NCBI GenBank assembly: GCA_035342335.1
Contig: DAOQWY010000016.1
Location: 11,711 to 75,710, forward strand
DNA from: Bacteroidales bacterium
GTDB lineage: Bacteria; Bacteroidota; Bacteroidia; Bacteroidales; JAGONC01
Direction: 5' to 3'
DNA length: 64,000 nucleotides
Below are positions 4,409 through 47,513 of this stretch, piece by piece. Every line of letters begins with the position of its first letter. The stretch's first letter is position 1. The position numbers and the translations under genes were made by a program. Below the pieces are notes generated by a model that saw only the letters and a program-made list of their open reading frames with translations, was not told the origin of the DNA and made no database searches.

Positions 4409-7400
4409 TTACCGCAGGATGAGACGCTCCACCTTGGAGATATCATCTCCGTAGAGTCTCAGGAAGTAAACTCCCTTGGGATAAGTTGCAATGTCAATTT
4501 CGGTCTTGTAGAAGCCGTTGATGCTTTCGACCGTTTCCTGTTTCAGGATCTGACCGGTGATGTCCATCAACGACAGCTCCAGTTTGCCTGTGATGTTCGT
4601 TATCTTCACATTGAACTTCGCATCCGACGGGTTGGGATAGACATTCACGGTAAGTTCGGCTGCAGGTTTGCCTGGAATTCCCGGGCAGGGATCTGCCACA
4701 ACAATCAAGGCATCGCTGTAGTCACCCTCACCGCAATCGTTCACGCCCTTCACCTTGATGAAGACCGGTCCGAAATATTCACCGCTCCAATCCACAACGC
4801 CAATGGTACCCTCCCCGGAGATCGTACCTGCTTCTGCCGGGAAGATATCCCACACATAGGACAGGGCATTTGCGGCTCCGATGGTTTGATACCAGGTGGT
4901 ATCCGTTGTGAGGACGCAGACGGTATCAGCTCCCGACGGGATTCCGGGGATAGCCGGTATAGGATCAATGAGCAATACCATCATGTCGCTGGCAGGATCC
5001 GGACACGGATCAATCGGCCAGGCAGTCAGCGTCAGATTGACATAACCCAGAAGGATATCGCTTGTACCGGGTTCATAGGTGGCGTTCAGCAACGTGTTGT
5101 CGTTGAACTTACCGTCGCCTGAAGAAGTCCATTCTGTGTAGAAGAAGCCACCGGCCACTCCGCTAAGCTGATACAGTTCATTTGCACAGATCTTATCATC
5201 GGGACCCGCATTGGCAAACGCTGCTGCTGCGATGGTCAGGACAAGCTGATCCGTAGCGTCTTCACCGCAAGGTGCCTCGGCGTAAGCTGTCAGCGTCAGG
5301 TCAACCGTTCCTGCCAGCAAGTCAAGGGTACCCGGTGTGTAGACCGGATCCAGAATATTGGCATTGCTGAAGGTTCCGTCGCCTGAAGAGGTCCATTTCA
5401 AGGATGCGTAATTATCCGCTGTACCTTCCAGTTGTGCTTCTTCCGTTGAACAGATGGCGAAATCGTCACCCGCAAAGGCTGACGGTGCTGTGGTGATCGT
5501 CAGTGTCATGGCATCGGTTGCCATACCTCCGCATGGAGGCTGTGCATAGGCAGTCAGTGTCAAAACGACCACGCCGTCGGCAATATCACCCGCACTCGGC
5601 TGATAGGTTGCCACGATCATGTTCGGATTGACAAAGGTACCTGAACCGCTTGTTGTCCACAGCAGGGAGCCATAACCTGAAGCAGTGGCTCCGTTCAGCA
5701 CATAGTCATTGCCCGCGCAAACAGCGCCGTCCGGGCCTGCAAAGGCCTGAGGCACGCCGATGATGGTCAGGGTCATGGCATCCGTTGCATTATTGGAGCA
5801 CGGGGCAATCGCATAAGCCGTCAGTGTCAGCGTGGCTGAACCGCTGGCAATATCACCGGCACCCGGTGTATAGACAGGATTCAGAATATGCGTATTGCTG
5901 AAGGTGCCATCTCCCGATGTCGTCCAGGTAAGACTGCTGTAATTCGCTGCAGTGCCATTGAGCGTATGCGTTCCTGTGCCACAGATTGTGGCATTCGGAC
6001 CAGCATTGGCGGTTGGCTGCTCAACAAAGGTAACAACAACCTGATCGCTCACGGGTTCTGTACACGGAGGAACAGGATTTGCTGTCAGCGTCAGAACGGC
6101 AGATCCGGCGGCAATGTCCGCACTGCCGGGCCAGTACTGCGTAAAGGTGGAAGTCGGATCGACAAAATAACCGTCTCCTGAAGTTGTCCAGAGTGTGGTC
6201 CATGCATTGGTTGTCCAACCCAGTGTCTGATAGTAGCCGTCTTCACAGGCAACTCCGTCATCTCCGGCATTCACAGTGGGAAGCAATCCGATTTCAAGAG
6301 TAACTTGATCTATAGCTACATCCGGGCACTCATTCATTGCAAACGCAGTCAGGGTCAGCACCACTTCACCGTCAACGATATCGGCATCACCTGGTGTATA
6401 GGTCGCAGCAAGCAGCGTGGCGTCGTCAAACGTACCGTCACCTGCTGTCGTCCACAGCACCGAACTGTAGTTGGTGGCTGTTCCGTTCAGTGTGTAGGAC
6501 TGGTTTTCACAGAATTCGTCATCTTCACCGGCATCGGCTGTTGGCAGCGGAGTTACGCTGATCGTCACCGGCTCGGTGAAGATCTCTCCACAATAATCCG
6601 TCACGTACAATTTGTACATGGTTGTGTCGGTCAGTACGCCAGGCTGGTAAGTTGCTCCTGTGGCACCGGTGATATCCATCCAGACACCGCTGATGATATA
6701 GGTGTACTCAATGGTCACCTCCACACCAACGGCTGTGCCACCGCCATCACCATAGCTGTCAATAAAGTAGACCAGCCATTGTCCGGCAGATTGCTCGCCA
6801 TCGAATGCGTCAGTCGTGAAGACGAAATCAGTGGTGCATCCGTTATTGGCAAAACCACTCCAGATCAGGACTGATGTTCCCGCAGGGGATTTCAGGTACA
6901 TGGAAACTTCGCTGTACCAGTAATCGGAACAGATCTGGTCGGCCGTTACCTTAACATTGGCAACAACCACATCTTCTGCCGGCGGGACTACATTCTGCGC
7001 CCATCCGATTTCAATCCACGAATCGGACTCATAGGCATAAGGATCTGTCAGGTCAGGATAGCCATAGCTGTAGTCATCTTCAAATTCCTCTTCACCTTCG
7101 ATGAACACCTGCCACTGATACTCGTAGTCGCCCGCACCACCGGTTACCGTAGAGGTAAGAAGCTCTGGTGCCGTATTGTAGCAGATGACCTGATCTTCCG
7201 CGATACTGCCTGCCAGAACGTCATATACGATAATCGTAACGGTATTGCTGATTACAGGACCGCAACCGTGTCCGTCGTCAACAACGACATTATAATAGGT
7301 AGTCCCGATCAGAATGCCAGGTTCGTAAGTGGGGCTGATGGCTCCACCAATGGCTGTCCAGACTTCGCCATCCTCCGACATCTGCCATAGATAGGTATAG

Positions 7401-10400
7401 GCACCGTCACCGCCGGTCACCACAGAGGTCAGTGGTTCTGGCTGCGTGGCATTGCAGATCTCCTGGTCAGCGGCAATGGTAACTTCGATGACATCGTACA
7501 CGGTGATCGTAACAGCATTGCTGGTTACGGGGCCGCAACCGTGTCCGTCATCAACGACAACATTATAATAGGTTGTCCCAATCAAAATGCCAGGCTGGTA
7601 AGTAGGGCTCACGGCTCCGCCAATGGCTGTCCATACTTCACCATTCTCGGACATCTGCCATTGATAGGTATATTCACCGTCACCGCCTGTTACCTCGGAG
7701 GTCAGTGGTTCCGGCTGCGATGCATTGCAGATCTCCTGGTCAGCGGCAATCGTAACCGCCAGATCCTCCAATACTGTGATGGTCACGATATTGGTGGTTA
7801 TGGGTCCGCAATCGTATGTGTCGTCAACAAGAAGCCTGTAATAAGTGGTTTGGGTCAATGCGGAGGGCTGATAGGTTGAAGCATGAGCCCCTTCGATCAC
7901 CTGGAACTCAACACCGTCGGTTGAATGCTCCCAGTGATACAAATATTCGCCATTACCACCTGTGGTGGTCGATGTCAGTAATTCAGGAACCGTATTATAA
8001 CAGATGACCTGGTCAGCGGCAATGGTACTGAGCAATTCTTCATATACGGTAATCGTTACCGGATTGGTAATGATCATTCCGCAGTCGTCAAACACCTGGA
8101 GCACATAGCTTGTGGTTTCCTGCAACGCCGGAGGCTGATACGTATCTTCCGTGGCATCCTCAATGGGCGCTAACGGACCGTCATCATAGATCCACCACTG
8201 GTAGGTATAATTACCCGCACCACCGCTGACGATGGAAGTAAGGGCTTCCGGAATGCTATCGTAACAGATGGTCTGATCTTCTGCAATGCTCACCAGGAAC
8301 TCATCGTATACTGTGATAGTCACAGGATCCGATATGATCATCCCACAGTCGTCAAACAGTTGAAGCACATAGCTTGTGGTTTCCTGCAACGCCGGAGGCT
8401 GATACGTATCTTCCGTGGCTCCTTCGATAGGCGCTAACGGACCGTCATCGTATGTCCACCACTGATAGATATAGTTTTCAGCTCCACCGCTCACCACGGA
8501 GGTGAGTGCAGCCGGAATGCTGTCGTAACAAATGGTCTGATCAGCAGCAATAGTCACCAGCAACTCACCATAGACCGTGATGGTCACCGGATCGGTGATG
8601 ATCATGCCGCATTCGTCGAAGACTTGCAGTACATAGCTCGTGGTCTCGAACAATGCCGGAGGCTGATAGGTGGCTTCGGTGGCCCCTTCGATTTCTTCAA
8701 CAGGTTCTTCGTCATAGATCCACCACTGGTACGTATAAATCCCTGCTCCACCAGTGACGGTTGAAGTCAGAGCTTCCGGAACAGAATCGTAACAGATGGT
8801 CTGGTCGGCAGCAATGCTGGCTTCAAATAGTTCATATACGTGAATGGTGAAGGTACAGAAATTGACGCATGTGTTTTCATCAGTGTAGGTATAGGTGATC
8901 ACGTGGTCACCCGGGCCTGCCACTTCCGGATCAAACATCCCGCCACTCACTCCTGTGCCAGTATACTCACCACCTTCAGGCAGTCCGCCGTAAAGCATCC
9001 ACGGCTCAGCCTCCAGGCATACGGAGAAATTCTCCGGACAGGTGACGACCGGTAATGGATTCACGGTGATTTCAAAGGTACAGGACCCGCTGATCAGGTT
9101 CGGATAGGTATAAGTATAGGTGATCTCGTGGATCCCTGCTCCTGCTATGGCCGGATAGAACATCCCGCCGGAAACGCCGGGACCCGTGTATATACCGCCC
9201 ACCGGTGTACCTCCCGTCAAAATGAACGGTTCTGCATCGATACACACTTCGAAATCGTCCGGACAGTTGACATCCGGTAAAAGTGTGATCACACCGTTGT
9301 CGGTCCCCGTCAGCAAGTTGACCGGAGGTGCCGGGCTGCTGATAATGACAATATTATAGGGAGCAACGGTGTTGAAATTCAGGTTGTAGGGACCGGGCAA
9401 ATTGGGTGTGTTCAGCACAAACGTAAAGATTGTGCCGTTAAAGCCCAAGAACGGTTCATTCGTCAGAGAAGAGGCAATCACCCTGAGAATATTGCCTGGC
9501 ATGACCTGTGCGAAGATCTCATGATCAACCTTACGGTCAGCATCCAGCACTGCGCTTCCGTTCACATAGGTAAATCCGGCCGGAATGGCAATGTCGGCCT
9601 GGAAGGCCACAAAATCCTGGGTATTGTCGATTTCTGCTTCAATGGTCACGGGATGATCCACCAGCTGTGAAGCATCGTGCAGGATAAACAGGTTCTGGTT
9701 TTCGATGGTAATCTCTCCGTCAATGGTTCCGGTGATCAGTTCCAGCAATCCGGTTATATCGCTGATGTGGCCATTCACAACAGGAGCCGGGTAGGTACCC
9801 GGGATCGTGGATGTATGGACCACAAAAGTGGCGATGGTTCCCGAATTTCCCAGGAAGAGCTCATTGGGATTCGCAAAGCTGATGATGCGCAGGATGTTGC
9901 CAGGGAGGACCGAGCCAACGATGGTATGGTTGACACCCTTTCGGTCAGGATCAAGGGCAACGCTGCCAGGAACATATGTGAATCCGGCTGGTAAAGGAAC
10001 ATCCAGCTGGAAACCGGCAAACTCCTGGCTGTTGGTGATCGCCACCTCGATGGTGAGGTCTCTGTTACACAGACCTGAGGCATCCAGGATCTCAATGATA
10101 TTCTGTTGTGCCAGAATGGTCAGCACGCCATTGTCCACACCTGAACAAATGTTCTGGGCATCGGCATCCGAAATGAAGGGATTACTGATCGTAGCATCGT
10201 ACAAATCGGGATCGGGGCCGGGATTCGGAGGTGTGTTGACAATGAACGTGGCAATGTTACCTTCATTGCCCAAAAATGGCGTATTCGTCAGAGAAGTGGC
10301 TAGTAACGTCAATTGCCTCGTAGCACCGTTATAGGATGGGACAATTGTATGATCCACGACTCTGTCAGGATCCAGGACGACGCTTCCGGTTACATAGGAG

Positions 10401-12634
10401 AACCCAACAGGCAACTGAATGGTGCACTGGAAGGCCACAAATTCCTGTGTGTTGTTGATCGCCACGGGAACTGTCATAGGATTTCCGGTCAGCACCTCGG
10501 TATCCACGACCTGGATCACATTCACGTGGGGCAGGATCGTCAGCACTCCGTTGTCCGTACCGGTAAGCACGTTGTTCATCAGGGCATCACTGATGATGGC
10601 CTGGTCGAACGTGATGGGATAGGCCCCCGGGCCTGCCGTAAAATCAAGGACAAAGGAACATACATTCCCGTTGTTGCCTGTGAACGGAGCCTGTGTCAGC
10701 GAGGAAGCCAGGATCCGGAGAACATTTCCCCCCAGAACTGCAGCGTTTATGGTATGATCCGCCTCACGTCCCGAAAATTCTATACTACCCGCCTGATACG
10801 TGAAACCGGCCGGCAGGGGAATATCGAACTGGAAAGCGACAAATACACTGCTGTTGAGGATCTCTAGATCGACCGTAATGTCGTCTGCATCCGTGTAAAC
10901 GGATGCATCGTGCAGAATGGCAATATTGGAAAGGGCACCCCATACATCATTGAGCTCTATATCATCTTCAACGACAGCTATCCTGTCATTCACAAGTGTT
11001 TCTGGTACAGGTGTGGTCCCATCCATATAATAATACTTGTACTCGTAAGTTCCAAAGGGAAGTTGCAGAGTCAGTGTGTAGATCCACGATCCGGCAGATT
11101 CCGGGAACATTTCATATTCCGGATCAGTCGGAGGTACAGTCCATCCATTGAATGTCCCGCTCAGGTACACATCATCGGTGGCAGGGTTGAATCCGGCAGC
11201 ACCGGTCATATCTATGTTGAACGTAACATCGAATGTCTCTGTGACTTCCGTAAAATTCGCAGTAAGTTCTACGGCTTCGTCCGGCATGGGAAAGACGTAC
11301 GGATTGGCGGCACTGACAACGATGTCCGCTTCATCTGTCCAGTTCACGAACTGATATCCCGGATTGGCCATGGCCATGACCGTAACAGACTGATTTTCCT
11401 GGTACATCCCTGCGCCCAGGGCAGTTCCGGCACCAGCCGGATCAACTCCAAGGATCACTTCGTAGGTTGGGATGACAGCAAAATTGGCCGTGAGAAACAG
11501 GTTCTCAGCCGGCATGTCGAATACATACGGGTTGGCGGTACTGACGACTCCTCCATCCTCGGTCCAGTTTACAAAGCTGTAGCCCGTTCCGGCTGAGGCT
11601 GTCAGCGTGACCTGCTCACCCTCTTCATAGGCGCCTGCACCTGTTACTGTCCCTGCACCCACCGGAACAATATCGACGACGACCGTAAAGGTGGGAACGG
11701 TTGCAAAATTTGCCGTCAGGACAAGATTCTCGGCGGGCATTGCGAACGCATAAGGGTTGGCCGTGCTGACCACTCCTTCGGAATCCGTCCAGTTTACAAA
11801 AAGGTAACCCACGGCCGCTGAGGCAGTCAGTGTCACCGGATCACCCTCTTCATAGACGCCTGAACCGGTAACTGATCCGGCTCCTGCCGGGACCACGTTC
11901 ACGGTGACCGTATAGGTCGGGATAGGAGTGAAGTTGGCAGTCAGGGCTACGTCTTCGGCCGGCATCATAAAGGTGTACGTGCTGCTGGTGCTGACTACGT
12001 CACCACCATCGGTCCAGTTTACGAAAAGATAACCTGCAGCTGCAGTTGCAGCAACGGTCACCTGTTCACCTGCATCGTATTCACCTGCACCTGTAACCGT
12101 ACCTGCTCCTACCGGTGATACTCCAACCGAAACATCAAAACCCTGAGGTTCACAGATTAAAGTTGCTGTGCCGTCCTCCCAGCCGGTGATGATGTTCTGG
12201 CCAAGCAGGTTACTGATGGTCGGCATATAGGCCCCTGGAACATCGTAGATCTCCAGGGGATAGGTTCCGGGAATCGCTGGTGTATTTAAAATAAACGTAG
12301 CAACGATACCCGAGTTACCGCTGAAAGCGGTGGCTGGAAATGAATAGACCAGCACCCGGACCCTGCTCCCAATTTGGTTGGCAAGTCCGCTATGAACGCC
12401 AGGAACATTTCGGTAGAGGACAAGTGAACCTGGCTGGAGTGAGAATCCAGTTGGCAGGACAAGGTCAAACTGAAAACCGGCAAAAGCATCAGTATTGGTG
12501 ATCTCGACTTCCACCGTCAAAGGACTCCCACAGTCCGTTTCAACGTCGTTGAGACTCAACACATTGCTTTGGCTCAGCAGTAATAAGCTGCTAAATGAAA
12601 GCAAGGTGATCAATAATAGTCGTATTATCTTCAT
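4409..12634 (-). CDS. Giant secreted T9SS cargo protein, scaffoldin-like, with five cohesin-like modules plus other repeat arrays
   Basis: 2741-aa ORF. Domain map by residue: signal peptide 1-22; cohesin-like modules at 25-160 and four more at 572-1120 (recurring xFxGFQFDhxhPxGF ... GNxGxhxTFhh pattern); four ~75-aa Listeria-Bacteroides (InlB B) repeats at 165-462 (GYxFVNWTD); starch-binding-like module at 467-566; two Cys-rich Ig-like modules; eight ~85-aa repeats at 1269-2030; seven ~87-aa repeats at 2031-2557; T9SS C-terminal sorting domain at 2660-2741 (VYPNPSDAKFNV...GVYFLRLYGDD...KVERLILR). Confidence 0.85.
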   Translation of the reverse strand: MKIIRLLLITLLSFSSLLLLSQSNVLSLNDVETDCGSPLTVEVEITNTDAFAGFQFDLVLPTGFSLQPGSLVLYRNVPGVHSGLANQIGSRVRVLVYSFPATAFSGNSGIVATFILNTPAIPGTYPLEIYDVPGAYMPTISNLLGQNIITGWEDGTATLICEPQGFDVSVGVSPVGAGTVTGAGEYDAGEQVTVAATAAAGYLFVNWTDGGDVVSTSSTYTFMMPAEDVALTANFTPIPTYTVTVNVVPAGAGSVTGSGVYEEGDPVTLTASAAVGYLFVNWTDSEGVVSTANPYAFAMPAENLVLTANFATVPTFTVVVDIVPVGAGTVTGAGAYEEGEQVTLTASAGTGYSFVNWTEDGGVVSTANPYVFDMPAENLFLTANFAVIPTYEVILGVDPAGAGTALGAGMYQENQSVTVMAMANPGYQFVNWTDEADIVVSAANPYVFPMPDEAVELTANFTEVTETFDVTFNIDMTGAAGFNPATDDVYLSGTFNGWTVPPTDPEYEMFPESAGSWIYTLTLQLPFGTYEYKYYYMDGTTPVPETLVNDRIAVVEDDIELNDVWGALSNIAILHDASVYTDADDITVDLEILNSSVFVAFQFDIPLPAGFTYQAGSIEFSGREADHTINAAVLGGNVLRILASSLTQAPFTGNNGNVCSFVLDFTAGPGAYPITFDQAIISDALMNNVLTGTDNGVLTILPHVNVIQVVDTEVLTGNPMTVPVAINNTQEFVAFQCTIQLPVGFSYVTGSVVLDPDRVVDHTIVPSYNGATRQLTLLATSLTNTPFLGNEGNIATFIVNTPPNPGPDPDLYDATISNPFISDADAQNICSGVDNGVLTILAQQNIIEILDASGLCNRDLTIEVAITNSQEFAGFQLDVPLPAGFTYVPGSVALDPDRKGVNHTIVGSVLPGNILRIISFANPNELFLGNSGTIATFVVHTSTIPGTYPAPVVNGHISDITGLLELITGTIDGEITIENQNLFILHDASQLVDHPVTIEAEIDNTQDFVAFQADIAIPAGFTYVNGSAVLDADRKVDHEIFAQVMPGNILRVIASSLTNEPFLGFNGTIFTFVLNTPNLPGPYNLNFNTVAPYNIVIISSPAPPVNLLTGTDNGVITLLPDVNCPDDFEVCIDAEPFILTGGTPVGGIYTGPGVSGGMFYPAIAGAGIHEITYTYTYPNLISGSCTFEITVNPLPVVTCPENFSVCLEAEPWMLYGGLPEGGEYTGTGVSGGMFDPEVAGPGDHVITYTYTDENTCVNFCTFTIHVYELFEASIAADQTICYDSVPEALTSTVTGGAGIYTYQWWIYDEEPVEEIEGATEATYQPPALFETTSYVLQVFDECGMIITDPVTITVYGELLVTIAADQTICYDSIPAALTSVVSGGAENYIYQWWTYDDGPLAPIEGATEDTYQPPALQETTSYVLQLFDDCGMIISDPVTITVYDEFLVSIAEDQTICYDSIPEALTSIVSGGAGNYTYQWWIYDDGPLAPIEDATEDTYQPPALQETTSYVLQVFDDCGMIITNPVTITVYEELLSTIAADQVICYNTVPELLTSTTTGGNGEYLYHWEHSTDGVEFQVIEGAHASTYQPSALTQTTYYRLLVDDTYDCGPITTNIVTITVLEDLAVTIAADQEICNASQPEPLTSEVTGGDGEYTYQWQMSENGEVWTAIGGAVSPTYQPGILIGTTYYNVVVDDGHGCGPVTSNAVTITVYDVIEVTIAADQEICNATQPEPLTSVVTGGDGAYTYLWQMSEDGEVWTAIGGAISPTYEPGILIGTTYYNVVVDDGHGCGPVISNTVTIIVYDVLAGSIAEDQVICYNTAPELLTSTVTGGAGDYEYQWQVFIEGEEEFEDDYSYGYPDLTDPYAYESDSWIEIGWAQNVVPPAEDVVVANVKVTADQICSDYWYSEVSMYLKSPAGTSVLIWSGFANNGCTTDFVFTTDAFDGEQSAGQWLVYFIDSYGDGGGTAVGVEVTIEYTYIISGVWMDITGATGATYQPGVLTDTTMYKLYVTDYCGEIFTEPVTISVTPLPTADAGEDDEFCENQSYTLNGTATNYSSVLWTTAGDGTFDDATLLAATYTPGDADIVDGEVVLTLTAFAMNECPDVAIDQVTLEIGLLPTVNAGDDGVACEDGYYQTLGWTTNAWTTLWTTSGDGYFVDPTSTFTQYWPGSADIAAGSAVLTLTANPVPPCTEPVSDQVVVTFVEQPTANAGPNATICGTGTHTLNGTAANYSSLTWTTSGDGTFSNTHILNPVYTPGAGDIASGSATLTLTAYAIAPCSNNATDAMTLTIIGVPQAFAGPDGAVCAGNDYVLNGATASGYGSLLWTTSGSGTFVNPNMIVATYQPSAGDIADGVVVLTLTAYAQPPCGGMATDAMTLTITTAPSAFAGDDFAICSTEEAQLEGTADNYASLKWTSSGDGTFSNANILDPVYTPGTLDLLAGTVDLTLTAYAEAPCGEDATDQLVLTIAAAAFANAGPDDKICANELYQLSGVAGGFFYTEWTSSGDGKFNDNTLLNATYEPGTSDILLGYVNLTLTAWPIDPCPDPASDMMVLLIDPIPAIPGIPSGADTVCVLTTDTTWYQTIGAANALSYVWDIFPAEAGTISGEGTIGVVDWSGEYFGPVFIKVKGVNDCGEGDYSDALIVVADPCPGIPGKPAAELTVNVYPNPSDAKFNVKITNITGKLELSLMDITGQILKQETVESINGFYKTEIDIATYPKGVYFLRLYGDDISKVERLILR

Positions 12635-12724
12635 GGCTATTGTGTTAATTGTTTCTTAGGTTATGGAATTGACTTGTTCCTGCACAATTGGATTATATGA
12701 TTTCAAGAGGTCTAAGAACCAGCG

Positions 12725-12754
12725 TGCCGGCCTCCGCGAAGCGGGCGGCCGGCA
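12725..12754 (-). terminator. GC-rich hairpin between the two giant genes (attenuator, terminator or processing site)
   Basis: TGCCGGCC (12725-12732) pairs with GGCCGGCA (12747-12754), with an inner CCGC-GAA-GCGG pairing. It lies about 50 nt after the stop of the 3218-aa gene. There is no clear U-tract on the minus strand. Confidence 0.4.
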
Positions 12755-12805
12755 GACTGGTATTTGATCTAGGTATTAAAGATCAGGAACATGACTCATT
12801 ATCAA

Positions 12806-15800
12806 CTACTTAATGATTACTACTTTCACTTCCTGCCTGTAAACCTGGTGAGAAGCGTCTTCTGTTATAGCATTCATTTGTAGAATGTACAGCCCTGTGG
12901 TCAGGGTCTGGGCATCGGTCCAGTTGATCAGGTGCTCACCGTAGTCATAGATGGCATCAGTAAGTTCACTGATCACTCTTCCGGAGAAGTCGAGCAGACG
13001 AATGTTCACCTTTGCATTGGCCGGTACATTGAACAGTGCGTTGATCTCGCCCCTGGTGGGGTTCGGGTACGCCATCAGGCTGAATGCATCGCTGAGAGCA
13101 CCGTGCTTGGTCACCTGAACTTCGTTTTCGCCGTAGTTGGCACCGATCACATTACCCCATTCAATGGTTCCTTCCGCTGCCATGCTGATCAGATTGATCA
13201 TGCCGGCCGGTATGGGTTCATTGTCAAGGTTATAGATCATACCGGTAAGGGTATTGCCTTCCACGGAGTAAGTAAGTTCATAGCCTGCAAGGGCCAGTGT
13301 GAGCTTAAGATTGCTGACCTGCGGTCCTTCAAGTTCGAACTGCAGACCGGAAACGGTTCCGTCGCTGTTGAACATGATGCCGTCGGAAGCCAGATAGATA
13401 TCAGCCGGGATCGACATCACAGATGCCTTTCCTGTCTGTCCGAGTATGATGTTGATCAAGGCAACAATATCGAGTACGTTGATCTGTCCGTCGCCGTTGA
13501 TATCGCCACCATCACCGATACACTGTGTCCAGGCCTGACTGCCCATGATGTAGTTGGTCAGGATCTGAACGTCAAGTACGGTGAGGAAGCCGTCGCAGTT
13601 CACATCACCCAGGAGTTTGGTGGTGAAGGTACCTGCAACTACTTCAGCATAGATGCCTGTACCACAAACAGTACGAACTTCAACGTTATACAATGTACCC
13701 GGAGTGAGTCCTGTGATCGTCTTTGGTGAAGCAGCAACCGCCCATGCCGTCCAGGTTCCACCTACCGCTTTCTTGTAGCGAAGTTCGGCAGTCTGTCCGG
13801 CAGGTGTCGTCCAGGTCACCTCAGCCGTCTTGGCAGTCGTAGTCGAAGCCAGGTTGGTGACAGGATCGCAGGCTGCAAAGTGAGCGACAACGGTCTTGTT
13901 GCCATTCATCGTCAGGCTTGCAGGATTTGCCGTACCTGTCAGGTCACCGGTCCAGTTCAGGAACAGTCCGTTTGGTTCCGGATCGAGTGTCAACACGGTT
14001 CCGTAATTAACGGTGTACGGAGGAGTCAGAACGGTCGCACCATTCTTTACCACCACCGAGCATGAAGACGGTCCATCAATGGTCACAGTCAAAGTAACCG
14101 TAGTGATCGTAAACTTCGCCTCAAGCGCTACGTTAGCAGCTGGCATGACAAAGCTATACGCCAGATTTGGGGAGACAAGCGTCGTTCCCTGATACCATCC
14201 ATTGAATACCCAGCCTACCGTTGGGGTAGCAGTTACGGTTACATTGTCGCCAATGTAATAGATTCCGCCACCTGCAACCGTACCACCGGCAGTAGGATTC
14301 GCTGTCAGTGTAACATTATAAGGTATGGCATCGAATACTGCTACGAAGTCATTCCATTCGCACAGGATCGTATGATTGAACTGCTCATCTTCAACAAGAA
14401 CTTCGCACATTGGATTTGCCCAGTAATCGAATACATATCCGGGTCCCGGGGTAGCCAGCAGAGTGATAACCTCATCCAGAGCATAAGGACCGGAACCGGA
14501 AATGACTTCGGCAGTACATCCTGCGGGAAGCAGTCCGCTTTCGCACTCATCACGCGCCATCGTTATTTCAACGTCGAAGTAGGTTTCCTCGAACAAGCCA
14601 TAGATGGTTACGTCATAAGGCTGAGGAATCCAGCCGAAATTCGGAGCCGTGATAGGCGTACCGGTAGCATCCGTTACAGGAACATTGCAGTTATAATCAT
14701 AGAACCAACCCACGAATTCATAGTTGCAGCAATCTTCTTCTGCTGAGATTGGCAGCGGGTCGTCTTCGATATTGTACATATAGTCCCAATCCTGTGCATA
14801 GACAGAACCGCAACCTATGGCAACAAGGTTAAGTTCATACTCGATCAGCTCATAATGAGCAACGGCAACCTTATTTTCATCCATGTAGATGCCAAGTGGG
14901 CTAACACCTTCAGCTTGAGTGGTATAATTCACATCCCAGTGCATGAAGCCCCAGCCCGGAGTAGTTTCCTCCTGATCGACCATTGCAACAACGGTTTCCG
15001 GATAGTTTCCATCACCCCAGGTGTTACCAAAACCATCAGGATTGTCTGATGTGGTCAGGGAGTAGATCGGATACTGCGGGAAGGCGGTTTCAACTGCAAG
15101 AGCATAGAATACAACCGTTTCTTCCCACTGTGCCGGAATGGTGTACGTAAAGGTCATCGTCTGCGGGTATGGACGCGGTGCATGTACCGGGTCGATCTGC
15201 CATCCGGTCAGGATGCAGTTCCCACCGTCTCTGTCTAATTCGCCACAACCCGGCAGGTCACTCAGCGTACCGACCATCCAGTTCACAAACGTGAAGCCGG
15301 GGATCGGGGTTGCCTTCAGGGTGACAACATCACCGAAATTATAGATGCCATCGCTTCCAGGAGTCACATCCTCAAGCAGCAGGCCATAATCAACGATGTT
15401 GCAGTTGCACGGATCAACAGGGCGCAGATATGTGCGGCATACAAGATCAAGTTCGTAATCGATCTTCTTGTAATGGGCTACCATCGTCACTGCAGTGTTC
15501 GGCATGTTGAATACATACGGATTCGAATAATTCTTACCCGTGAACAGTGAAGATGTCCAGTAGTCGAATTCCCAACCGATCTCCGGTATGGCTGTCACTG
15601 AAATGACTGACGGGAATCCGCTCAGCTGGTTGTGCTTGTAGAACGCATAGGGTTCGTAAGCTGTATAACCATTCTGTGTTACGGATTCATCACCAGCAAC
15701 TTCCGGATCATGCGTCACGGTGAGCGCGTAGGTCGGCAGATCAACGACAAAGATTGCCCTGATCGTGCGATCAGCATTGACCATCGGCAGGCTCAGCGGA

Positions 15801-18800
15801 TTGGCTGATCCGAGGCTGACACCATTTTCAACATCATACCAATGAGATAATTTATAATAGGTATTCGCAGTAGCTGTAAGGGTAAATGGCGTCGGATGCT
15901 GGAAGTGCTCGAACGTTCCGATTGCAGTGCCAGCGGTTGAATTGTTTGTGAACTTGTTCAATCCTGTGCCAGCAGGCGCTCCGGTCACTTTACCTCCGGT
16001 CGTATTCTGCGTATTGTTATAATACGGCAATCCCTTGATCACATACTGTCTCAATGCCAGTTCTGCAACCAGATCATAGGGCTGTTCGCAGTCGTTGTCA
16101 CCTACTATGTAGCTCCATACACTTCTGTCAATGTATTCCTCGACCAGATAGACATTATCGTTGTTGAAACCAACGCATTCCCATCCTGGTTCAGGATAAA
16201 CGGTCAGTGTCAGCGGTGTATCAAAGTCGAAGTAATCACCTGCTGTAGCTTCAGCATCAATCAGCTGTACAAAGTCACCATCGGAATTTTCACCTTCGAT
16301 CAAAACTGAACCCTTGGTGTTAGGATCTGTAACGGCGGTGATGTGGTACGGCTTCTTTACGAAGACGGCCTTGATGTCGAGGTTCGATTCGACCGGCATC
16401 CATTCGGTCGGCGTGAAAAGCACATAGTGCCGCTCGCTGCCCACCATGGTTCCATCCCATACCTCGAAATGATCGAACATCCATCCGCATTCGCATTCGT
16501 GTGTTTCGAGCGTCACAGGTGTCCCGTATTTGAAGACAGCATAATTCTGTGCTGCAAACACGATGCCCCAATCCTGTCCCTGTACGAACTGTGCCGTATA
16601 GGTTACATAATTGCAGTCAGGGCTTTCCGGAACGACCGTAACGTCAATTCTCGGGTAGAACTTGGCAAAGTTGGCTTCCACTGTATAGGTGTAGCCGTGT
16701 ACCGGATCCGTGCCAACCATATCAAAGGTGATGAAACCTTCTTTTGGAGTTACAAAGTTCGGTTTGGCTGGCAGTTCAGGATCATAGGTGTAATTGGTCA
16801 CATCGTTTGGTCCGATGGTGGCCAGTACGGAAGCGGGCAGCTGTTTACCACTGGACGGTGGTGCATACGACCAGCTTGTATTGTAATAGCCATCCATTGC
16901 CTTTGCCTTGATCATAACAGCACTGCCGTGGGTATAGTTCTTTGTATCATAATCAACCCATGAATTGGTATTGCCTGTCCAGGATACACCGCTGGTGCTG
17001 GGGTCCTGGTACGGGACCGCTTTTGCATAGATGTTGTAGGTGTTGATGTTATAATCCACATTGAACCTGTAGCCTTCAAACGGCACTGCCGGATCGGCTG
17101 TCCAGTCAATGAACGGATGTGATGTCGGCCAGGCCGGTGCAGCAGGTGTCTGGTTCTGGTTGGTGAACAGTTCCCATCCCAAACCGGGTAGGGTGTTCTG
17201 ATATTTCCATCCTGAACCGGATTTATAATACACCGAGGTGGTCAGGTTTCTTGTCCAGTTATTGATATGGTACCCCTGACCAATGTTGGACTTGAACGTA
17301 TACACGTGCGGATAAGGCAGCATATTGACCTTGTAGGTCAGCTGTTTTCCATAGGATCCATACGCACTGCCATCCACGTTCAGGTTCTTCAGTGTTGCCG
17401 AACCTTCTTTCAGGAACAGATTGTTGATATCGCCTGCACCCCAGCTCGGCGGGAATTTCAGCCCGCTGTTGGCCGAGTAGCTAACAGTGATGTCAAACTT
17501 ACAGGTGGTGCACCACGACCAGACAAGGTCTGCTCCACCGCCTGGTCCGTCGCTTGCCACTCTGCCTCCATCCGTCATGTCGATGAAGCCGGCTCCGTTA
17601 TCCATGAATCCGTCGCGGAACAGGACATAATAATTATAGCAGTGCAGCATCTGGTTGTACGGATGCGTCCAGTACTCTTCATTGCCTGCAAAGGCTTCCG
17701 GGACAAGGGTGATCACCGTCGGGCCAAAAGTACCCGGGTAACCAGGCAGAGCTTCTTCATACTCAGAGGCAGTGGCCTTGAACATCACCTTTTTCCATAC
17801 TTCCGGACCGTATTTCGGACTTGCCCAAATCTCGAACTTATGGGTGGGTTCACCTACCTGGTCAGAGATCATATTCCCGTTGGTGTACTTCACAGGATTC
17901 ACAAAGGTGATCTTGATCGGTGCATTGTATGCAATTTCAACATCTTCACACCCTGATGGTTCAACCACTGGTGAGATCAGCTGCGGAATGGTCTTGAAGA
18001 TGATCTGACGTGAAAGCTCGAAAGCACACGCGGCTTCTTCGTCAAACTCATAATCATCCTGATCAAGACGGTATTCTACTCTCTGGAAATCACCTGTTAT
18101 GTTGTTATGGGCCCAGATGTCGCCAAACACGATCCTGTAATAGTTATTCCACTGAAGATCAACACGTACTTCATTTTCCGGTGTACCCGGGTAGACCGTG
18201 ATGACCCGACCTGCCCTGATGGACCAGAAAGGAACGGTTGCCCAATTGTCCGGATCAGGATAGATGTACTCGTGGCACGGAGGTTCACCCGCAACGATGT
18301 ACTTCTCAAGACGGATGAAATTACCCAGACCGGTGCCGGAGGTTGGCAGGGGCTGACCCATATAGTTGTAGACATCCTGGTTGAACGTAATGGTAAAGGT
18401 CCTTTCAACGGGGACTTCAACAATGTCGGGTTCGCATTCCGGATCGCAGCTCAGCTGATAGCTCGGATCGAACATCGCGTAAGGTGGCGCAACAATGTCG
18501 GCATCATCATCGCCTTGATCACCGATGCAGTAGTTGCCCGATTGTGCCCCGGATAGTCCGAGGTTTACAATCTCAACATCCTTGTCATCTTCAACCCAGG
18601 GATTCACAAAGTAGGCTTCCGCGTCAGCCGGATCGGCCGGAGTCACGTAAACCAGTGTTTCACCCGCAATGAGTCCTGACAATGCACCATAGGATAACAC
18701 AGTTGCTTCAACCTGTCCGTTAAATTGCTTGTCGGCGATCACGATGTTGGGCAGTGTCAGCCATTTGCAGCTGATCGTAGCCTGTATCACCGGATATCCG

Positions 18801-21800
18801 GCGCCTTCCGGACAGTTGAGCACATAGTTCGGAGCGTCTGTTCCGCTCAGGGTGGCTGAGTAAGTTACGTTCCACGTACCAATGTTCTTGCTGGCAAAGG
18901 TGCCGGCCGGATTAATGGTACCTGAAACGTTATCGCCAGCCAGGAATCCCTTGAAGCCATCGTTTACTCCATCATAAGGTGTAGGTTCATTCTTGCTGAC
19001 AACGGCATTGGTATTTCCGTCGTAGATCTTATTATCAGCTTTTGCATAAACATCCACACATTTGCGGAAGATCTTGGCTGCGGAGGTCGCTGTGCTGCCG
19101 GGAACACCATAACCCGTTAACGGATCATAGGTGGTAGCGCCAAGGATGTAGTAGCAATCATCGATACCTGTGAGCTCCAGACCTGTGATGTTCACCTGTT
19201 TGGTGAGATAGATCGTTCCGTTCCAGGTGGTATTTTCATCAATAAAGTTTGCCACAACGCCAACCCAGTCGAAATCAACCGTACAGTCATAGCCAGGGCA
19301 GGTTGTCGAATAACCGGTAAGTGTACTGGCTTCCTGGTCAATGGTTGCAGTAGTCGTTCCGTCATAGATCTTGTTGTTGATGACGATGTTTGCCGTAAGG
19401 TTCTTACGGAAGAGGGCCTTCAGTTCCTTATCGCTGCGGAACACCAGTTCATAAACATGATGTCCGGCATCGTTCAAACCTATATAGGTAAAGTCGGGAT
19501 CCCCCAAGGGTTCTCCGTCATCAGCCGGATCGCAGAAGATCCATTCGCCCCAGGTCCAGCCTGTGGTGGGGATGACTTCGAGGAGAACGGTTTCACCGTG
19601 GGTGAAGGTGAGGAAGGTGCCGCTGGTGGGCTCGATATCGGCGCACTCGCGGTTACCGGTCAATTCGAACGGTGTGCTTCCGCCGTCGGTCCACACGATC
19701 ACTTTCTGTCCGCAACCTGCAACTCCGATAACGAATTCATATTCTTCCTGGTCGAAGTGGGCGGTTACCTCGGCATTGCACGGAGGCATCCTGTACCAGG
19801 TCGGGTTGGCTTCATAGTCGGCAAAATTATCATAGGCAGGTATGTCACGGCCTTCTGGTTCTTCGCAGTCCGTTTCGCTCGTCCATTCATCGAAGAAATA
19901 GCCACCGAGCACCGAAGGTGTTGCGATTACTTTTACCAGGGTACCACAGCCAATGTTGTAAGGTCCCGGAATTTCCGGATTTGTTGTTCCGGCATAATCG
20001 GGTTCCGCCGCCATCGTCAGTGCATAGGTACCAATGGTGAAGCTGACATTCCTGCTGTCAGGAGAGGTCATGTATACGAAATTCGGATACGCGAACAGCT
20101 TGACGATCGGCTTGAAGTTCAGGGTATAGTCGCCCTTGTTCGCTGCGCCGGTCAGATCCGTTGGCGGATCATAGTTGCCGGGGATGACGAAGTTGAAGGT
20201 CCAGGCAACATCCACTGCATTGATCAGTTTGTCAGGTACCGTACCCACCTTGCTGGTGGAGCCTGCGATGATGGCTGACAACATCGTTTCCGTATTCACG
20301 GGCAGGGCTGTTCCCACCGTGAAGAGTCCACTGGCGGTGGCGCCATAGTGCCAGTCAATCGTTGTTCCGGCCGGAATTTCGTGGGCCGTATTCTTGATCA
20401 CGACATCCGTATAGATATCATACGCTGTGGGTTCGATACTGGCGATGGCCGGGAAATCGAAGGTAACCGTTATGGGAATGATATCGTTCAGGCACACATA
20501 GTCATTGGGCGTTGTAGCCGTAAAGGATGCATTGGCAAAGGTAATGTCAACATTGTCGGTACCAACGATACAGATGGGCGAGGTGCCATAGTAGGTAAAC
20601 AGCTCAACATCCATGTCAAAGGTAACCGGAGCTGAAACTCCTTCGATATCGAATTCCCAGTAAAGAGTCGTACCTGAAATTGCAGTCAGATCGTACGGGT
20701 AGATCAACGGACTACCAAACATCTGGCTGAACTTCTTACCGGATGTTCCGCCGAGGACACCATCGATAATCGTGATAGTGTTGGTCGGAGGATTGGTTGC
20801 ACCATACCTGGCTCCCAAAAGCACCATTCCTGATGGGAAGTTACCCGATGTTTTGGTAATTCTTCCATCGAGCATGATACCCGCGTGGTCTGCTGAAAAA
20901 GGAGCAGCCAACGTCGTGGTGACCGGTACAATGATCGGGGCCTTGGTCACGGCACTGATCGCGGTTGGGCCAATGTTCACACTTGCAGTGATATCCAGGT
21001 TGATCAGCTCAACGCTCAGCACTTCACCGTAGGGATAATCAACGGCATTCAGCTGAACAATGGGCTGTACCGTCAGGTTGTAGCTGCCCGATGGCAGGTT
21101 GGCAATGGAAAACTCCCATTCAATATCGAGTTCACTATGGCCAAGCAGCGGTGTTGGCGCCACTCCGGCAGGAACTGAGTTCACAACAACATTCGACAAA
21201 TAAACAGGCGTGTTCGCCGGAATACCTCCGACACCAACTGTAAAGACTGCCGGACCGAAGCTTCCGCCGGGGGTCTGGGTGTAGGTCCAGGTGATCGTTG
21301 CACCGGCAGGAATGGCCTTGTCGGTCTTCAGAATGGCGTTGGCCAGGATTTCGCCTGCCAGGTCAACCTTATAGATGGTGGGATAGGTGATGGTAGTGGA
21401 GAATTCGAACGGACCACCACATTCTATGATCGGTGAAAGTTCTGGTGTGAATGTTTGTTCAACATCAGCCACTTCGATATCGAATTCGCTGGATGCAAGT
21501 ACGGTCTCGCACAATTCATCCCCGAATTCAAGAGCAGCATCCTTATAGGCTATGGTAGAAACGGTTACGGTAAAGGTTTCCGCTTCCATGAACCCATCGA
21601 ATGTAAATACCCAGTTGATGGTCTTACCACTTTCATCTTCAAGCAATGGAGCGATGAAGTCGCTTGGTACCGTTACAAGATCAAAAATATCACTGAGCAG
21701 GATATCATTTCCATATACACCATATACACCTGCTACAGTACCCAGGTCAATGGTTCCAACCACTCCCGGTGCAGGGGAGATATCCAGTATTCTCAGACCG

Positions 21801-36524: not shown

Positions 36525-39368
36525 ATGTTGTTCGATTCACTGGAAAACCTTGATCCGCATGATTTTATCCTCATCAAGGGAGCACGGGTTCATAACCTGA
36601 AAAACCTCTCTGTTGCTCTTCCACGCAATAAGCTTATTGTCATAACGGGTCTCTCCGGTTCAGGCAAATCATCACTCGCCTTCGACACCCTCTACGCCGA
36701 TGGACAGCGACGCTATGTAGAAAGTCTGAGCTCCTACGCCCGGCAGTTTCTGGGCAGGATGAGCAAACCGGAGGTGGATTTCATCAGGGGGATCGCCCCG
36801 GCCATAGCCATCGAACAGAAAGTCAATAACCGGAATCCCCGCTCAACGGTTGGAACATCCACGGAAATCTATGAATACCTCAAGCTGTTGTATGCCCGTA
36901 TCGGAACAACGTTCTCCCCGGTTTCCGGCAACCAGGTCAAACGACATACGGTTACGGATGTCGTTGATCATGTTCAGACCCTTGAGCCTGGAACAAGGTT
37001 TTTGATCCAATGCCCGCTGATCATCAAAGCGAAGAGGACGCTCAAAGAACAGCTGTCTGTCTTATTGCAGCAGGGATTCAACAAGATTTCCATCCAGCAG
37101 GAAATGATCAGGATTGAAGATTTTCTTTCGGATTCCTACGCCGGGCCGGTGCCTGACACTTGCTACCTGGTGATCGACAGGATGGTATGCCAGCATGGTA
37201 AAGAAGATCTGCTGGCCCGCATTGCTGACTCGGCAGAGCTGGCATTCTATGAAGGGGATGGATGCTGCGTGGTGGAGTCCATCGGTGAAGATGAAAGGAA
37301 GGTGGTTGTTTTCACGAATCGTTTTGAGCTGGACGGAATGACGTTTGAAGAACCCAGCCCCAACCTGTTCAGTTTCAACAATCCCTATGGAGCCTGCAAA
37401 CGGTGCGAGGGATTCGGAAGCATCATCGGCATCGATGAGGACCTGGTCATTCCCAACAAGAGCCTGTCGGTTTATGAGGATGCCATTGCCTGCTGGAGGG
37501 GAGAAAAGATGAGTGAGTGGAAGGATGTTCTCGTGATGAATGCCTACCGGTTCGGATTCCCTATCTACAAACCCTTCTACGAGCTGACCGATGAACAGAA
37601 AGAACTCTTGTGGACAGGGAATGAATATTTCAGCGGTTTGAATGATTTTTTCAACTATGTGGAAGAACAGACCTACAAGATCCAGTACCGTGTCATGCTG
37701 AGCCGTTACCGGGGAAAGACGGTCTGCCCCGAGTGCAAGGGAACCCGGTTGAGGATGGATGCCAACTATGTGAAGGTTGGAGGAAAATCCATCTCGGATA
37801 CCGTATTGATGCCGGTGAGCCAGGCACTTTCCTTTTTCAGGAACCTGAAGCTCGCCTCAACCCACAGGGTTGCTGCAAACCGCCTGCTGACAGAGATCAC
37901 CAACCGGTTGCAATACCTGGAGGATGTGGGGCTTGGATACCTGACACTGAACCGCCTTGCCTCCAGTCTGTCAGGGGGGGAATCGCAGCGTATCAACCTG
38001 GCGACCTCGCTGGGCAGCAACCTGGTAGGCTCCATGTACATCCTGGACGAACCCAGCATCGGCCTGCATCCGCGTGACACCTATCGTTTGATACGCGTTC
38101 TGCTGCAACTGCGCGATCTTGGCAACACGGTGATCGTGGTGGAACATGATGAAGACATCATCCGCGCAGCGGACCAGATCATCGATATTGGCCCGATGGC
38201 CGGAAGCCACGGAGGTGAGCTCGTGTTTCAGGGTGATTACGATGAGCTCCTCCACGACAACAGCAGCCTCACCGGGCAATACCTTTCCCACAAGCAAATG
38301 ATCCCGTTGCCTGCGATCAGGAGAACGTGGAAAGATTTCATTGAGGTTTCCGGTGCCAGGGAACATAACCTGAAAGGTATTTCGGTCCGTTTTCCCTTGC
38401 AGGTATTTACCTGTGTTACCGGCGTCAGCGGGTCAGGAAAGACAACGCTGGTCAAAAAAATCCTCTTTGCAGCATTGAAGAAAATCCACGGCGGATATGC
38501 AGAAAAAACGGGCAAATTCGATAAACTTGACGGTGACATTCAGCGCATAGGAAACATTGAACTGGTGGACCAGAATCCCATCGGAAGATCCACGCGTTCC
38601 AATCCGGCCACGTACGTGAAAGCCTACGATGATATCCGCCAGTTGTTTGCTGATCAGCAACTGGCCAGGATCAGGGGATACAAACCCGGTTTCTTCTCGT
38701 TCAATGTCCCCGGTGGGCGCTGTGAAGAATGCGAGGGTGAAGGCACCGTAAAGATCGAAATGCAGTTCATGGCCGACATTTACCTGAAATGTGAGAGCTG
38801 TGATGGCAAACGGTTCCGCGAGGAAGTGCTGGATGTCAGGTACAGGGACAATACCATCAGTGACGTTCTGGATCTGACTGTTTCCCAGGCGATCCATCTC
38901 TTCGGAAGCCATAAAAAGAAAAATTCGATCGAAAGCAGGATCGTGGGCAAACTGCAACCACTTGAAGATGTCGGACTGGGTTATCTCAAGCTGGGGCAAT
39001 CTTCCAGCACGTTGAGCGGAGGCGAGGCGCAACGAACAAAACTGGCCTATTTCCTGGCAAAGGGAGCGACCGAAGTACCCACCTTTTTCATTTTTGATGA
39101 ACCCACCACCGGGCTTCACTTTCACGACATCCACAAACTTCTGGACGCATTTCACGCATTGATCGAACGCGGGCATACCATTCTGGTCATCGAACATAAC
39201 CTGGAGGTCATCAAATGTGCCGACTGGATCATTGACCTCGGGCCGGAGGGTGGCGATGAAGGCGGGACCGTTGTCTTCACGGGCACTCCGGAAGACATGG
39301 TTACTGCCAACGGAACCCATACAGCCCTTTATCTGCGGCAAAAACTTTCTCCTGAATCCATCCATTAA
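36525..39368 (+). CDS. uvrA: Excinuclease ABC subunit A
   Basis: 947-aa ORF with two ABC modules ([14 protein letters not shown]; [10 protein letters not shown]), zinc-finger Cys pairs (CKRCEGFG; CPECKGTR; CEECEGEG...CESCDG) and LSGGE signature motifs. Confidence 0.97.
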
Positions 39369-47300: not shown

Positions 47301-47513
47301 GATTTCTGGATCACCTGCCTGGCCTTCACGGCCGGTGGTGATAAACTGATCACGGGCAGCGCAGATAAAACGATCAGGATGAGGTTAATCAACACGGAAG
47401 TGCTTACACGTCTTTTATGTGCCGATCTTTCAAGGAACATGACCCAGGAGGAATGGAATCTTTATGTCGGGCCTGACATCGGTTATTCCAAAACCTGCGA
47501 AAATCTTCCTTAA
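44391..47513 (+). CDS. STAND-type P-loop NTPase - single TM - coiled coil - WD40 beta-propeller protein
   Basis: 1040-aa ORF. NPFPGIRSYEIEEDFLFFGRD precedes Walker A GASGSGKSS and Walker B LLLVIDQFEELF. The hydrophobic segment is FAIILGLASVVSIFFLIISINLTF (~residue 505). A Q/E/K-rich coiled coil of ~150 aa follows. About 7 WD repeats are present (SADGSIRIWD, SYDGTVRLWN, SADKTIRM). The C-terminus is SRNMTQEEWNLYVGPDIGYSKTC. Confidence 0.75.
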   Translation: MNESRIPLNPFPGIRSYEIEEDFLFFGRDHLIRELVTMLSDTHFIALTGASGSGKSSLIKAGLIPALVKQTAGEDTGRWEYAIFRPGDDPIGQMADALFTTVRKGTGNESPYKEAQEIEKILRSGREGFVDVFEKMHTFFRNSNLLLVIDQFEELFRFKSNFTDSVVTADADHLVELLLYALEQKGFPVYVILSLRSDFIDRCTDYPGLTEKINHGYYLIPRMTREDIRQAITGPVGVGGAQISEKLVGRLLEEVSTEPDQLPILQHALMRTWEKWLQKRTSEPVIDEHHYESIGTMQDALSLHAEEIFLSMSDARQQVLAEKLFKALVVVGEDNRGTRRPTQLGEICSIAGVKSQEVIEVVESFRSPGRSFLMPPPGVSLNEDSIIDITHESLMRIWKRLRVWVEEETQSAQLYQRLSKSAELYQQGKTGLWVDPELHLAVKWKENIKPNQAWASRYDPAFDRAIQFLNYSQKEAELAVARKEEHQKRELARARRFAIILGLASVVSIFFLIISINLTFKAEASERKAQEKEKLAMLENLKAAAQRKEAIIQRRISEQQQQIAEQQKIITEEQKEFAIQQQQIAFSERKEAILQKQLAEEARNEAVLARDYAQEQGKIALEQKGIAESERAKAEVSERNARRLRLLAVANAMAIKSVEIQKSVKGDLPALLALQAYRLNRQNEGSQQDPDIFKALSGVSKGDAMLWIHQNEVRSVIVGNKSGILYSCSLDGTVKITDTGKPGEPVRTLSTEEKDRDEYFSLALSTDERFLAAGTYHGKILLWDLNDQDGMPFVLNGHTFIVTHLSFNPVSGELASSSADGSIRIWDPMHANDPGRVIDQTFSRMTVVCYSPDGNELSWANEKGEIKIMNLKSMAAIPVVIQQAGAAVYSMAFSNEGDLLACGDGSGSILLWKSIQPSGSPVSLIGHLSRVSGLKFSPDGTTLGSCSYDGTVRLWNYLSAEEPPIVMDDYDFWITCLAFTAGGDKLITGSADKTIRMRLINTEVLTRLLCADLSRNMTQEEWNLYVGPDIGYSKTCENLP

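Follow-up and report, generated by a model that had tools for sequence, protein, structure and literature searches.

The assembly of proteins through cohesins and dockerins is textbook biology of Gram-positive cellulosomes. Two adjacent giant genes of an uncultured anaerobic-digester Bacteroidales bacterium (genome of 3.41 Mb on 53 contigs, 100% complete) raise the question whether a similar plug and socket is built there from cargo of type IX secretion (by the T9SS). The genes lie within a stretch of 64,000 nucleotides that was analysed as a whole (the window; positions 11,711 to 75,710 of contig DAOQWY010000016.1, assembly GCA_035342335.1), and they encode P0001, a 2741-aa scaffoldin-like protein, and P0002, a giant dockerin-bearing protein with an open frame of 3218 aa. 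We consider it probable that P0001 and P0002 are partners in an enzyme-free surface assembly of the cellulosome style that consists of T9SS cargo; this pairing is supported, at the level of sequence, by comparative genomics, domain content and genome context.

A first-pass annotation of the window had described two co-oriented reading frames of 2741 and 3218 aa, 171 bp apart, and its coordinates agree with ours to within a few bases:

4409..12634, minus strand: P0001 gene (open reading frame and translation, Pfam, NCBIfam)
12806..22426, minus strand: P0002 gene, 3206 aa from the ATG at 22426, i.e. Met13, which is the start of the protein on record; the open frame reaches the TTG at 22462 (3218 aa)

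From its N-terminus, P0001 consists of a signal peptide, cohesin 1, four Flg_new_2 modules, a weak segment resembling a carbohydrate-binding module (CBM), cohesins 2-5, a repeat stalk and a T9SS tail, and its cohesins are thereby located at the N-terminal, cell-distal end of the long stalk. P0002 resembles an adhesin, contains six Flg_new_2 and two YDG modules and many unassigned beta-rich regions (Pfam, NCBIfam), and its last 270 residues comprise a dockerin, a module that we call X, and a T9SS domain. Searches against Pfam, NCBIfam and PDB sequences yielded no catalytic domain in either protein.

The recurring modules of P0001

The cohesin-like modules were studied by means of A1, an alignment of the five P0001 modules, and A2, a 48-sequence family profile of sampled modules.

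12149..12565, minus strand: cohesin module 1 of P0001, aa 24-162, directly after the signal peptide; A2 E-value 2.3e-36
9269..10927, minus strand: cohesin modules 2-5 in tandem, aa 570-705, 706-845, 846-981 and 982-1122 (alignment A1)

These positions correspond closely to the five modules of about 135 aa that had been claimed at nt 12155-12562 and 9275-10921. Both diagnostic motifs occur exactly five times in P0001, namely F.[AG]FQ..[LIV]..P.GF at aa 51, 598, 732, 872 and 1008, and G[NF].G.[IV][ACF][ST]F at aa 106, 653, 789, 929 and 1064. The modules are about 137 aa long each; modules 2-5 share 35-38% identity with module 1 and are recovered by A2 with domain E-values of 1e-37 to 1e-43. The recurring module is not a matter of chance, since 1.84 billion representatives searched with a profile of the five modules yielded 3950 matching protein clusters (E<=1e-3), of which many have 3-14 modules.

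The fold of the modules is that of a cohesin. AlphaFold2 returned a confident model of module 1 (pLDDT 88.5, pTM 0.82), a nine-stranded jelly-roll beta-sandwich that can be superimposed on solved cohesins, and in a comparison with the PDB by Foldseek all 50 of the 50 listed matches were cohesins, with E-values down to 7.6e-8, a TM of about 0.6-0.8 and some 15% identity; they included types I, II and III as well as the archaeal cohesin 2xdh. A relation to unrelated Ig-like or CBM domains, the outcome that would have spoken against the cohesin assignment of the first-pass annotation, was thus not observed, neither among the listed Foldseek matches nor in the sequence comparison: A2 recovered the solved cohesins 5n5p (6.5e-8), 6kgc (4e-5) and 2xdh (6e-5) from the PDB sequences, and only three of its 25 matches at E<=1, all of them weak, were non-cohesins. 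The motifs that are conserved in the family fall, by DSSP assignment, on strands 3, 5, 6 and 8 of the module 1 model, strands which we take to correspond to the dockerin-binding sheet of type I complexes such as 1OHZ.

The modules are not recognised by the established family model. Of the models that the first-pass annotation had named as a check, Dockerin_1 (in P0002) and Por_Secre_tail/TIGR04183 (in both proteins) match above their cut-offs, whereas Cohesin (PF00963) stays below its own: it does not match P0001 as a whole, yields 0 matches genome-wide, and among the single modules matches only module 3, weakly (E 0.037). A profile of just the five module sequences likewise retrieved nothing above noise from the PDB, and the homology became visible first with the 48 sequences of A2. 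Family relatives nevertheless bridge the distance, as P0033 (39 bits) and P0034 (50 bits) pass the Pfam Cohesin model unaided, and 11 of the 48 sampled family modules reach it on their own. On the basis of the fold, these intermediates and the profile we conclude that the P0001 modules are genuine cohesins of a divergent subfamily that is missed by current annotation; the NCBI name for a partial member of the P0001 cluster is only "T9SS type A sorting domain-containing protein".

In a phylogenetic tree the cohesins group by position, with one well-supported orthologous clade for each of the five across four genomes, and the modules are therefore old and individually maintained, and not recent duplicates. 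A wider grouping, in which the N-terminal cohesins encoded beside a dockerin gene would form one cross-family orthologous clade, was unsupported, as the deep tree is not resolved and contains lineage-specific expansions.

Dockerins, export and conserved gene order

The features at the C-terminal end of P0002, and the sorting domain of P0001, are as follows (curated cut-offs for the T9SS models in brackets):

13442..13612, minus strand: dockerin of P0002, aa 2951-3007; PF00404 40 bits (cut-off 22.9), with positions 1-57 of the 57 in the model covered
13070..13441, minus strand: X module of P0002, aa 3008-3131, between the dockerin and the T9SS tail
12809..13069, minus strand: T9SS type A domain of P0002, aa 3132-3218; PF18962 28.9 bits (27), TIGR04183 25.5 bits (23)
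4412..4642, minus strand: T9SS type A domain of P0001, match at aa 2665-2739, range to aa 2741; PF18962 45 bits (27), TIGR04183 42.4 bits (23)

The duplicated dockerin segment that had been placed at nt ~13436-13615 is thus a full-length Dockerin_1 domain. Its two calcium-binding loops, read from the sequence as DVNCDGFLTVLD and DINGDGQINVLD, are canonical (both D-x-N-x-D-G-x5-D) and are each followed by a helix in a low-confidence model; a phmmer search against the PDB retrieved the solved dockerins 1daq, 2y3n, 6kg9 and 2mte. The 15 dockerins of the genome align almost gap-free, and the P0002 dockerin is the outlier, i.e. the most divergent among them.

Both proteins also carry the signals for export that had been ascribed to them: the C-terminal sorting domains score above the cut-offs, and the N-termini (MKIIRLLLITLLSFSSLLLLSQS... 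in P0001; ...RRAGAVIAALFTILLLSSYVAEAQ... in P0002), read from the sequence and not by a predictor, resemble Sec signal peptides. The host encodes the corresponding machinery, with SprA (2626 bits) and two paralogues of the PorU sortase (1364 and 1235 bits), and about 109 T9SS tails are found in its genome.

P0001 is the only protein of the genome that is matched by the cohesin profiles, and it faces 15 proteins with a Dockerin_1 match above the cut-off, i.e. 14 beside P0002, a disproportion that the first-pass annotation had overlooked. Ten of these 14 combine a signal peptide and an N-terminal dockerin with one to three FISUMP (Fib_succ_major) domains. In the other four the dockerin lies at the very C-terminus; of these, one is PPC/CarboxypepD_reg/S-layer-like (2362 aa), one has six GEVED domains (1426 aa), one is a BNR propeller (444 aa) and the smallest is a protein of 218 aa. 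The nine that were scanned showed FISUMP, BNR, GEVED or PPC/CarboxypepD_reg/S-layer-like domains or none, and neither a glycoside hydrolase domain nor a T9SS tail was present in them; the remaining five resemble the FISUMP set by sequence. For the pair and these nine proteins the claimed non-cellulolytic context therefore stands. The ten FISUMP-dockerin loci (L017-L028) are spread over the G000 contigs C47, C5 (four loci), C37, C24 (two), C3 and C51, with three of them within 8 kb on C5. The N-terminal placement of the dockerin in these FISUMP (Fibrobacter succinogenes major paralogous) paralogues is unusual.

Related loci were sought with the whole P0001 protein. The closest relatives are metagenome-assembled genomes (MAGs) titled Lentimicrobiaceae, Bacteroidales and Bacteroidetes, and three close MAGs retain both genes, including the 1+4 layout of the cohesins, the conserved dockerin, the X module and the tail. 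The association between cohesins and dockerins was then evaluated in 201 species-level genomes that sample the order evenly (168 genera). Of these, 14 encode a P0001-type cohesin, 54 Pfam-type cohesins and 77 dockerins, that is, cohesins are carried by about 30% and dockerins by 38% of the genomes. With kinship ignored, i.e. without phylogenetic correction, all 14 genomes with a P0001-type cohesin also have dockerins, versus 77 of 201 overall (hypergeometric 6.6e-7), and for any cohesin the odds ratio with dockerins is 18 (p 1e-16).

More informative still is the gene order. A large gene with a dockerin, a module of about 110 aa and a T9SS tail at the end of its product is located immediately upstream of a cohesin-first gene in the genomes G156, G068, G040, G024, G187, G006 and G174 (twice in the latter), and a single protein of G091 and of G143 has the dockerin placed between cohesins. 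When these two fusions are counted, adjacency of this type is found in at least nine genomes, from seven further families and one further genus of the present family, so that the syntenic pair claimed at the outset is strengthened by three close relatives and at least nine further genomes. In G006, G040 and G024 the dockerin of the neighbour is moreover the sole dockerin of the genome. This sole occurrence, together with the recurring order, is the strongest available argument for considering the neighbour's dockerin and the downstream cohesin protein as partners.

Two side observations concern the same families. The 2.6-Mb genome G156, of the same order, contains more than 30 dockerins, and at C25:202500-222400 (L032) a dockerin-X-tail gene is followed by two scaffoldin genes in a row, the products of which carry 8 and at least 5 cohesins, respectively, of the P0001 subfamily; this locus is a much larger version of the P0002/P0001 cassette. 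In addition, it was seen by eye that dockerins in genomes with P0001-type cohesins match the Pfam model from position 1-3, and those in dockerin-rich genomes with Pfam-type cohesins (G064, G120, G148, G101) from position 8-11, which may indicate that the dockerin subtype co-varies with the cohesin subtype.

Possible partners of the P0002 dockerin

In the proposed assembly, P0001 and P0002 would be exported via Sec, transported by the T9SS and fixed to the outer membrane. The calcium-dependent dockerin of P0002 would plug into a cohesin of P0001, and the cohesins left free on P0001 would take up some of the other 14 dockerin proteins. Such a complex would probably serve to present binding modules by which the cell adheres to particles or other cells in the flocs of the anaerobic digester, and not to hydrolyse polysaccharides. 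That the dockerin of P0002 and the cohesins of P0001 belong together is suggested in particular by the conserved order of a dockerin-X-tail gene followed by a cohesin-first gene.

Several observations weigh against this assembly. The best score of a single P0001 module with the Pfam Cohesin model is 14.6 bits, for a cut-off of 24.1, and the co-occurrence statistics, as noted, are uncorrected for phylogeny. Within the sample of 201 genomes, 28 of the 77 dockerin-positive genomes are without a detectable cohesin, which implies that dockerins of this order need not always bind cohesins. The first helix of the P0002 dockerin reads LTVLDVQILTNYIMG, and its linker is devoid of the P-x-PF motif of the other 14. 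These 14 proteins have signal peptides, and the absence of a T9SS tail from the nine that were scanned gives them no evident route across the outer membrane. Co-transcription of the two genes is only putative because of a G+C-rich hairpin in the spacer. The dockerin is separated by about 125 residues (the X module) from its anchor and the P0001 cohesins by more than 1500 residues from theirs, an arrangement that fits poorly with binding in cis and favours contacts in trans, be it from molecule to molecule or from cell to cell. Finally, the P0002 dockerin adjoins a cohesin-like module of its own, so that its partner could be X and not P0001.

That the segment following the dockerin is itself cohesin-like had escaped the first-pass annotation. 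A profile of the four orthologous X modules did not score significantly with the cohesin profile (probability 15%), whereas a broader profile, built from eight X modules of six families that individually escape the cohesin profile, did so over 88 columns (hhalign probability 89%, E 2.2e-6). At the position of X, the cohesin profile itself matches in G174 (1e-15 to 1e-16), G091 (9e-10) and G143 (partially, 3e-6). X is most likely, as far as these profiles can tell, a truncated and degenerate cohesin derivative, and it thereby provides a real rival for P0001 as the binding partner of the dockerin.

According to this alternative, the P0002 dockerin binds its own X, either within one chain, which would result in a closed, self-capped tail, or between chains, which would result in head-to-tail homo-oligomers on the surface. 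The P0001 cohesins would then be left for the other 14 dockerin proteins alone, and the two genes would be adjacent as parts of one system and not as partners. The probable descent of X from a cohesin fits this scheme, as do the cohesin-profile modules that directly flank the dockerin within the same protein in G174, G091 and G143, the maintenance of the dockerin-X-tail layout across families, and the separate subtype of the P0002 dockerin with respect to the other 14. However, the X module of P0002 is without the first strands of a cohesin and is not matched by the cohesin profile when taken singly, and the model of the dockerin-X-tail region, derived from an alignment of four sequences, is too poor (pLDDT 47) to show a contact. 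Moreover, the sole dockerins of G040, G024 and G006 are encoded upstream of a protein that starts with a full cohesin, and that cohesin would be left partnerless if X took the dockerin. We hold binding to X to be unlikely.

Quite unlikely, in our view, is a second alternative, in which the cohesin-fold modules and the dockerin act independently and no plug-and-socket complex is formed. The beta-sandwiches would then be fibril spacers or ligand-binding modules (e.g. for glycans), and the dockerin would be a calcium-binding stabiliser or bind something other than a cohesin. Such independence would account for the dockerin-positive genomes that are without detectable cohesins and for the divergence of the P0001 modules from the Pfam Cohesin model, and the literature that could be searched contains no experiment on any cohesin or dockerin of the Bacteroidales. 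On the other hand, it is hard to reconcile with the strong association at the genome level (14 of 14, and an odds ratio of 18), with the repeated adjacency or fusion of cohesin and dockerin genes across families, and with the location of the conserved motifs on the presumed dockerin-binding sheet.

We give only a slim chance to the idea that the pair serves export in addition to display, such that tail-less dockerin proteins would dock in the periplasm and ride folded through the wide SprA translocon by "hitch-hiking". Docking would then take place onto the tail-bearing scaffoldin or onto the tail of P0002, and the succession of dockerin, degenerate cohesin and tail would be a dedicated coupling device.

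Known assemblies and other features of the window

The cohesins of CipA are near-identical to each other, whereas those of P0001 are only 35-38% identical and are separately conserved at each position. What the assembly proposed here has in common with cellulosomes (CipA/OlpB of Acetivibrio thermocellus; ScaA/ScaB/ScaE of Ruminococcus flavefaciens; 1ohz, 4fl4, 5n5p) is a non-catalytic multi-cohesin protein that is (here by prediction) fixed to the surface, partners with duplicated calcium-binding dockerins, and the cohesin fold at TM ~0.6-0.8. Unlike in cellulosomes, the host is Gram-negative and the anchors are T9SS C-terminal domains instead of SLH modules or a sortase; there is no dockerin-bearing glycoside hydrolase among the pair and the nine other dockerin proteins scanned, and no confirmed CBM; 10 of the 15 dockerins are N-terminal; and the dockerin of P0002 is followed by a degenerate cohesin and an anchor of its own. 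The system therefore fails the features that define a cellulosome, namely enzymatic cargo and Gram-positive anchoring.

The archaeal and the Clostridium perfringens cohesins named below bind their dockerins as well. Together with the amylosome of Ruminococcus bromii (PMC4611034), the NagJ/NagH pair of C. perfringens (2ozn/2jh2) and the cohesin of Archaeoglobus fulgidus (2xdh) exemplify use outside cellulose degradation, and the last two are represented by their cohesins among the matches, in sequence or fold, of the P0001 module family. These systems differ from the present one in being Gram-positive or archaeal and without a T9SS, and they mostly join enzymes or toxins.

The closest published proposal that we found is a cellulosome-like complex in "Ca. 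Stygibacter" of the Cloacimonadota, inferred from MAGs only, in which a conserved C-terminal domain likewise serves as the anchor of a cohesin scaffoldin (Williams et al. 2021, PMC8542988). It belongs to another phylum, its dockerin enzymes are GH18, GH57, S8/S53 and C25, its scaffoldin has CBM2/CBM3, and, as far as the accessible text goes, a gene cassette of dockerin-X-tail and cohesin genes is not described; the cargo of the P0001 system, by comparison, is non-catalytic (FISUMP, BNR, GEVED) and its cohesins escape Pfam. For the Bacteroidetes, a paper on fibre degradation describes the genomes of the phylum as devoid of cohesin-dockerin parts (PMC5831590), and other papers list dockerin matches in Bacteroidales in passing only.

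The locus is a compact case, in that one scaffoldin with five separately conserved cohesins faces fifteen dockerins of two subtypes, without enzymes (the nine others scanned). If the proposed assembly is correct, T9SS cargo would be organised into defined surface complexes, the uncharacterised FISUMP family would be assigned a partner, and a Gram-negative host might provide orthogonal cohesin-dockerin pairs with which proteins can be displayed; the exit of the tail-less dockerin proteins from the periplasm would then call for an explanation.

The remaining features of the two proteins and of the spacer between their genes are:

11240..12130, minus strand: four Flg_new_2 (divergent InlB B-repeat) modules of P0001, aa 169 to ~465, in 4 stretches; Pfam PF18998 E 5.7e-67
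11015..11179, minus strand: possible carbohydrate-binding-like segment of P0001, aa 486-540; AMPK1_CBM 18.5 bits against a cut-off of 26.8, a weak match and a lead only
4643..9268, minus strand: stalk of P0001, aa 1123-2664 (regular-expression positions; weak Ig_7, HYR, PKD_6 and P_proprotein matches)
6704..7066, minus strand: P-domain-like insert in the stalk, aa 1857-1977 (weak P_proprotein match)
13652..13864, minus strand: fibronectin type III module of P0002, aa 2867-2937, before the dockerin; Pfam fn3 E 5.7e-5 and a PDB FN3 match
12635..12805, minus strand: spacer between the P0001 and P0002 genes, 171 bp, with a G+C-rich inverted repeat at ~12726-12753 (read from the sequence)

The Flg_new_2 modules of P0001 separate cohesin 1 from the cohesin tetrad. 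The stalk is composed of Cys-rich HYR-like units, seven "IAxDQxIC" repeats of about 90 aa, repeats of about 88 aa ("WTTSGDG", five times) and a PKD-like domain. Its P-domain-like insert of about 120 aa was found by BLASTP to be 65% identical (79 of 121 residues, E 3e-51) to the C-terminus of a dockerin and FISUMP protein encoded on another contig. This second copy comprises aa 1020-1140 of that protein, whose dockerin is N-terminal (G000 contig C24:14518-17937, locus L021), and the similarity indicates that the module has apparently been exchanged between the scaffoldin and a putative cargo protein.

The inverted repeat of the spacer reads gccggcc...ggccggc on the minus strand (12726-12753) and is not followed by a T-run; an attenuator or a site of RNA processing is conceivable here. 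A consensus scan of the spacer yielded no convincing minus-strand terminator or promoter, and over the locus the scan performed no better than on shuffled sequence. The genes flanking the pair have housekeeping functions (glycosyltransferases, Sua5, RmlD, phosphoglucomutase, RecA), so that the giant pair stands out as a separate unit.

Elsewhere in the window, a gene on the plus strand (36525-39368) encodes a 947-aa UvrA-like ABC ATPase with UvrA interaction and DNA-binding domains. Another (44391-47513, plus strand) encodes a 1040-aa protein in which an nSTAND1 NTPase (E 4.7e-93) is joined to a WD40 propeller at the C-terminus, and on the 3' side of the gene genes follow for a TonB-dependent receptor, an MFS/HEAT protein and a Y_Y_Y hybrid histidine kinase.

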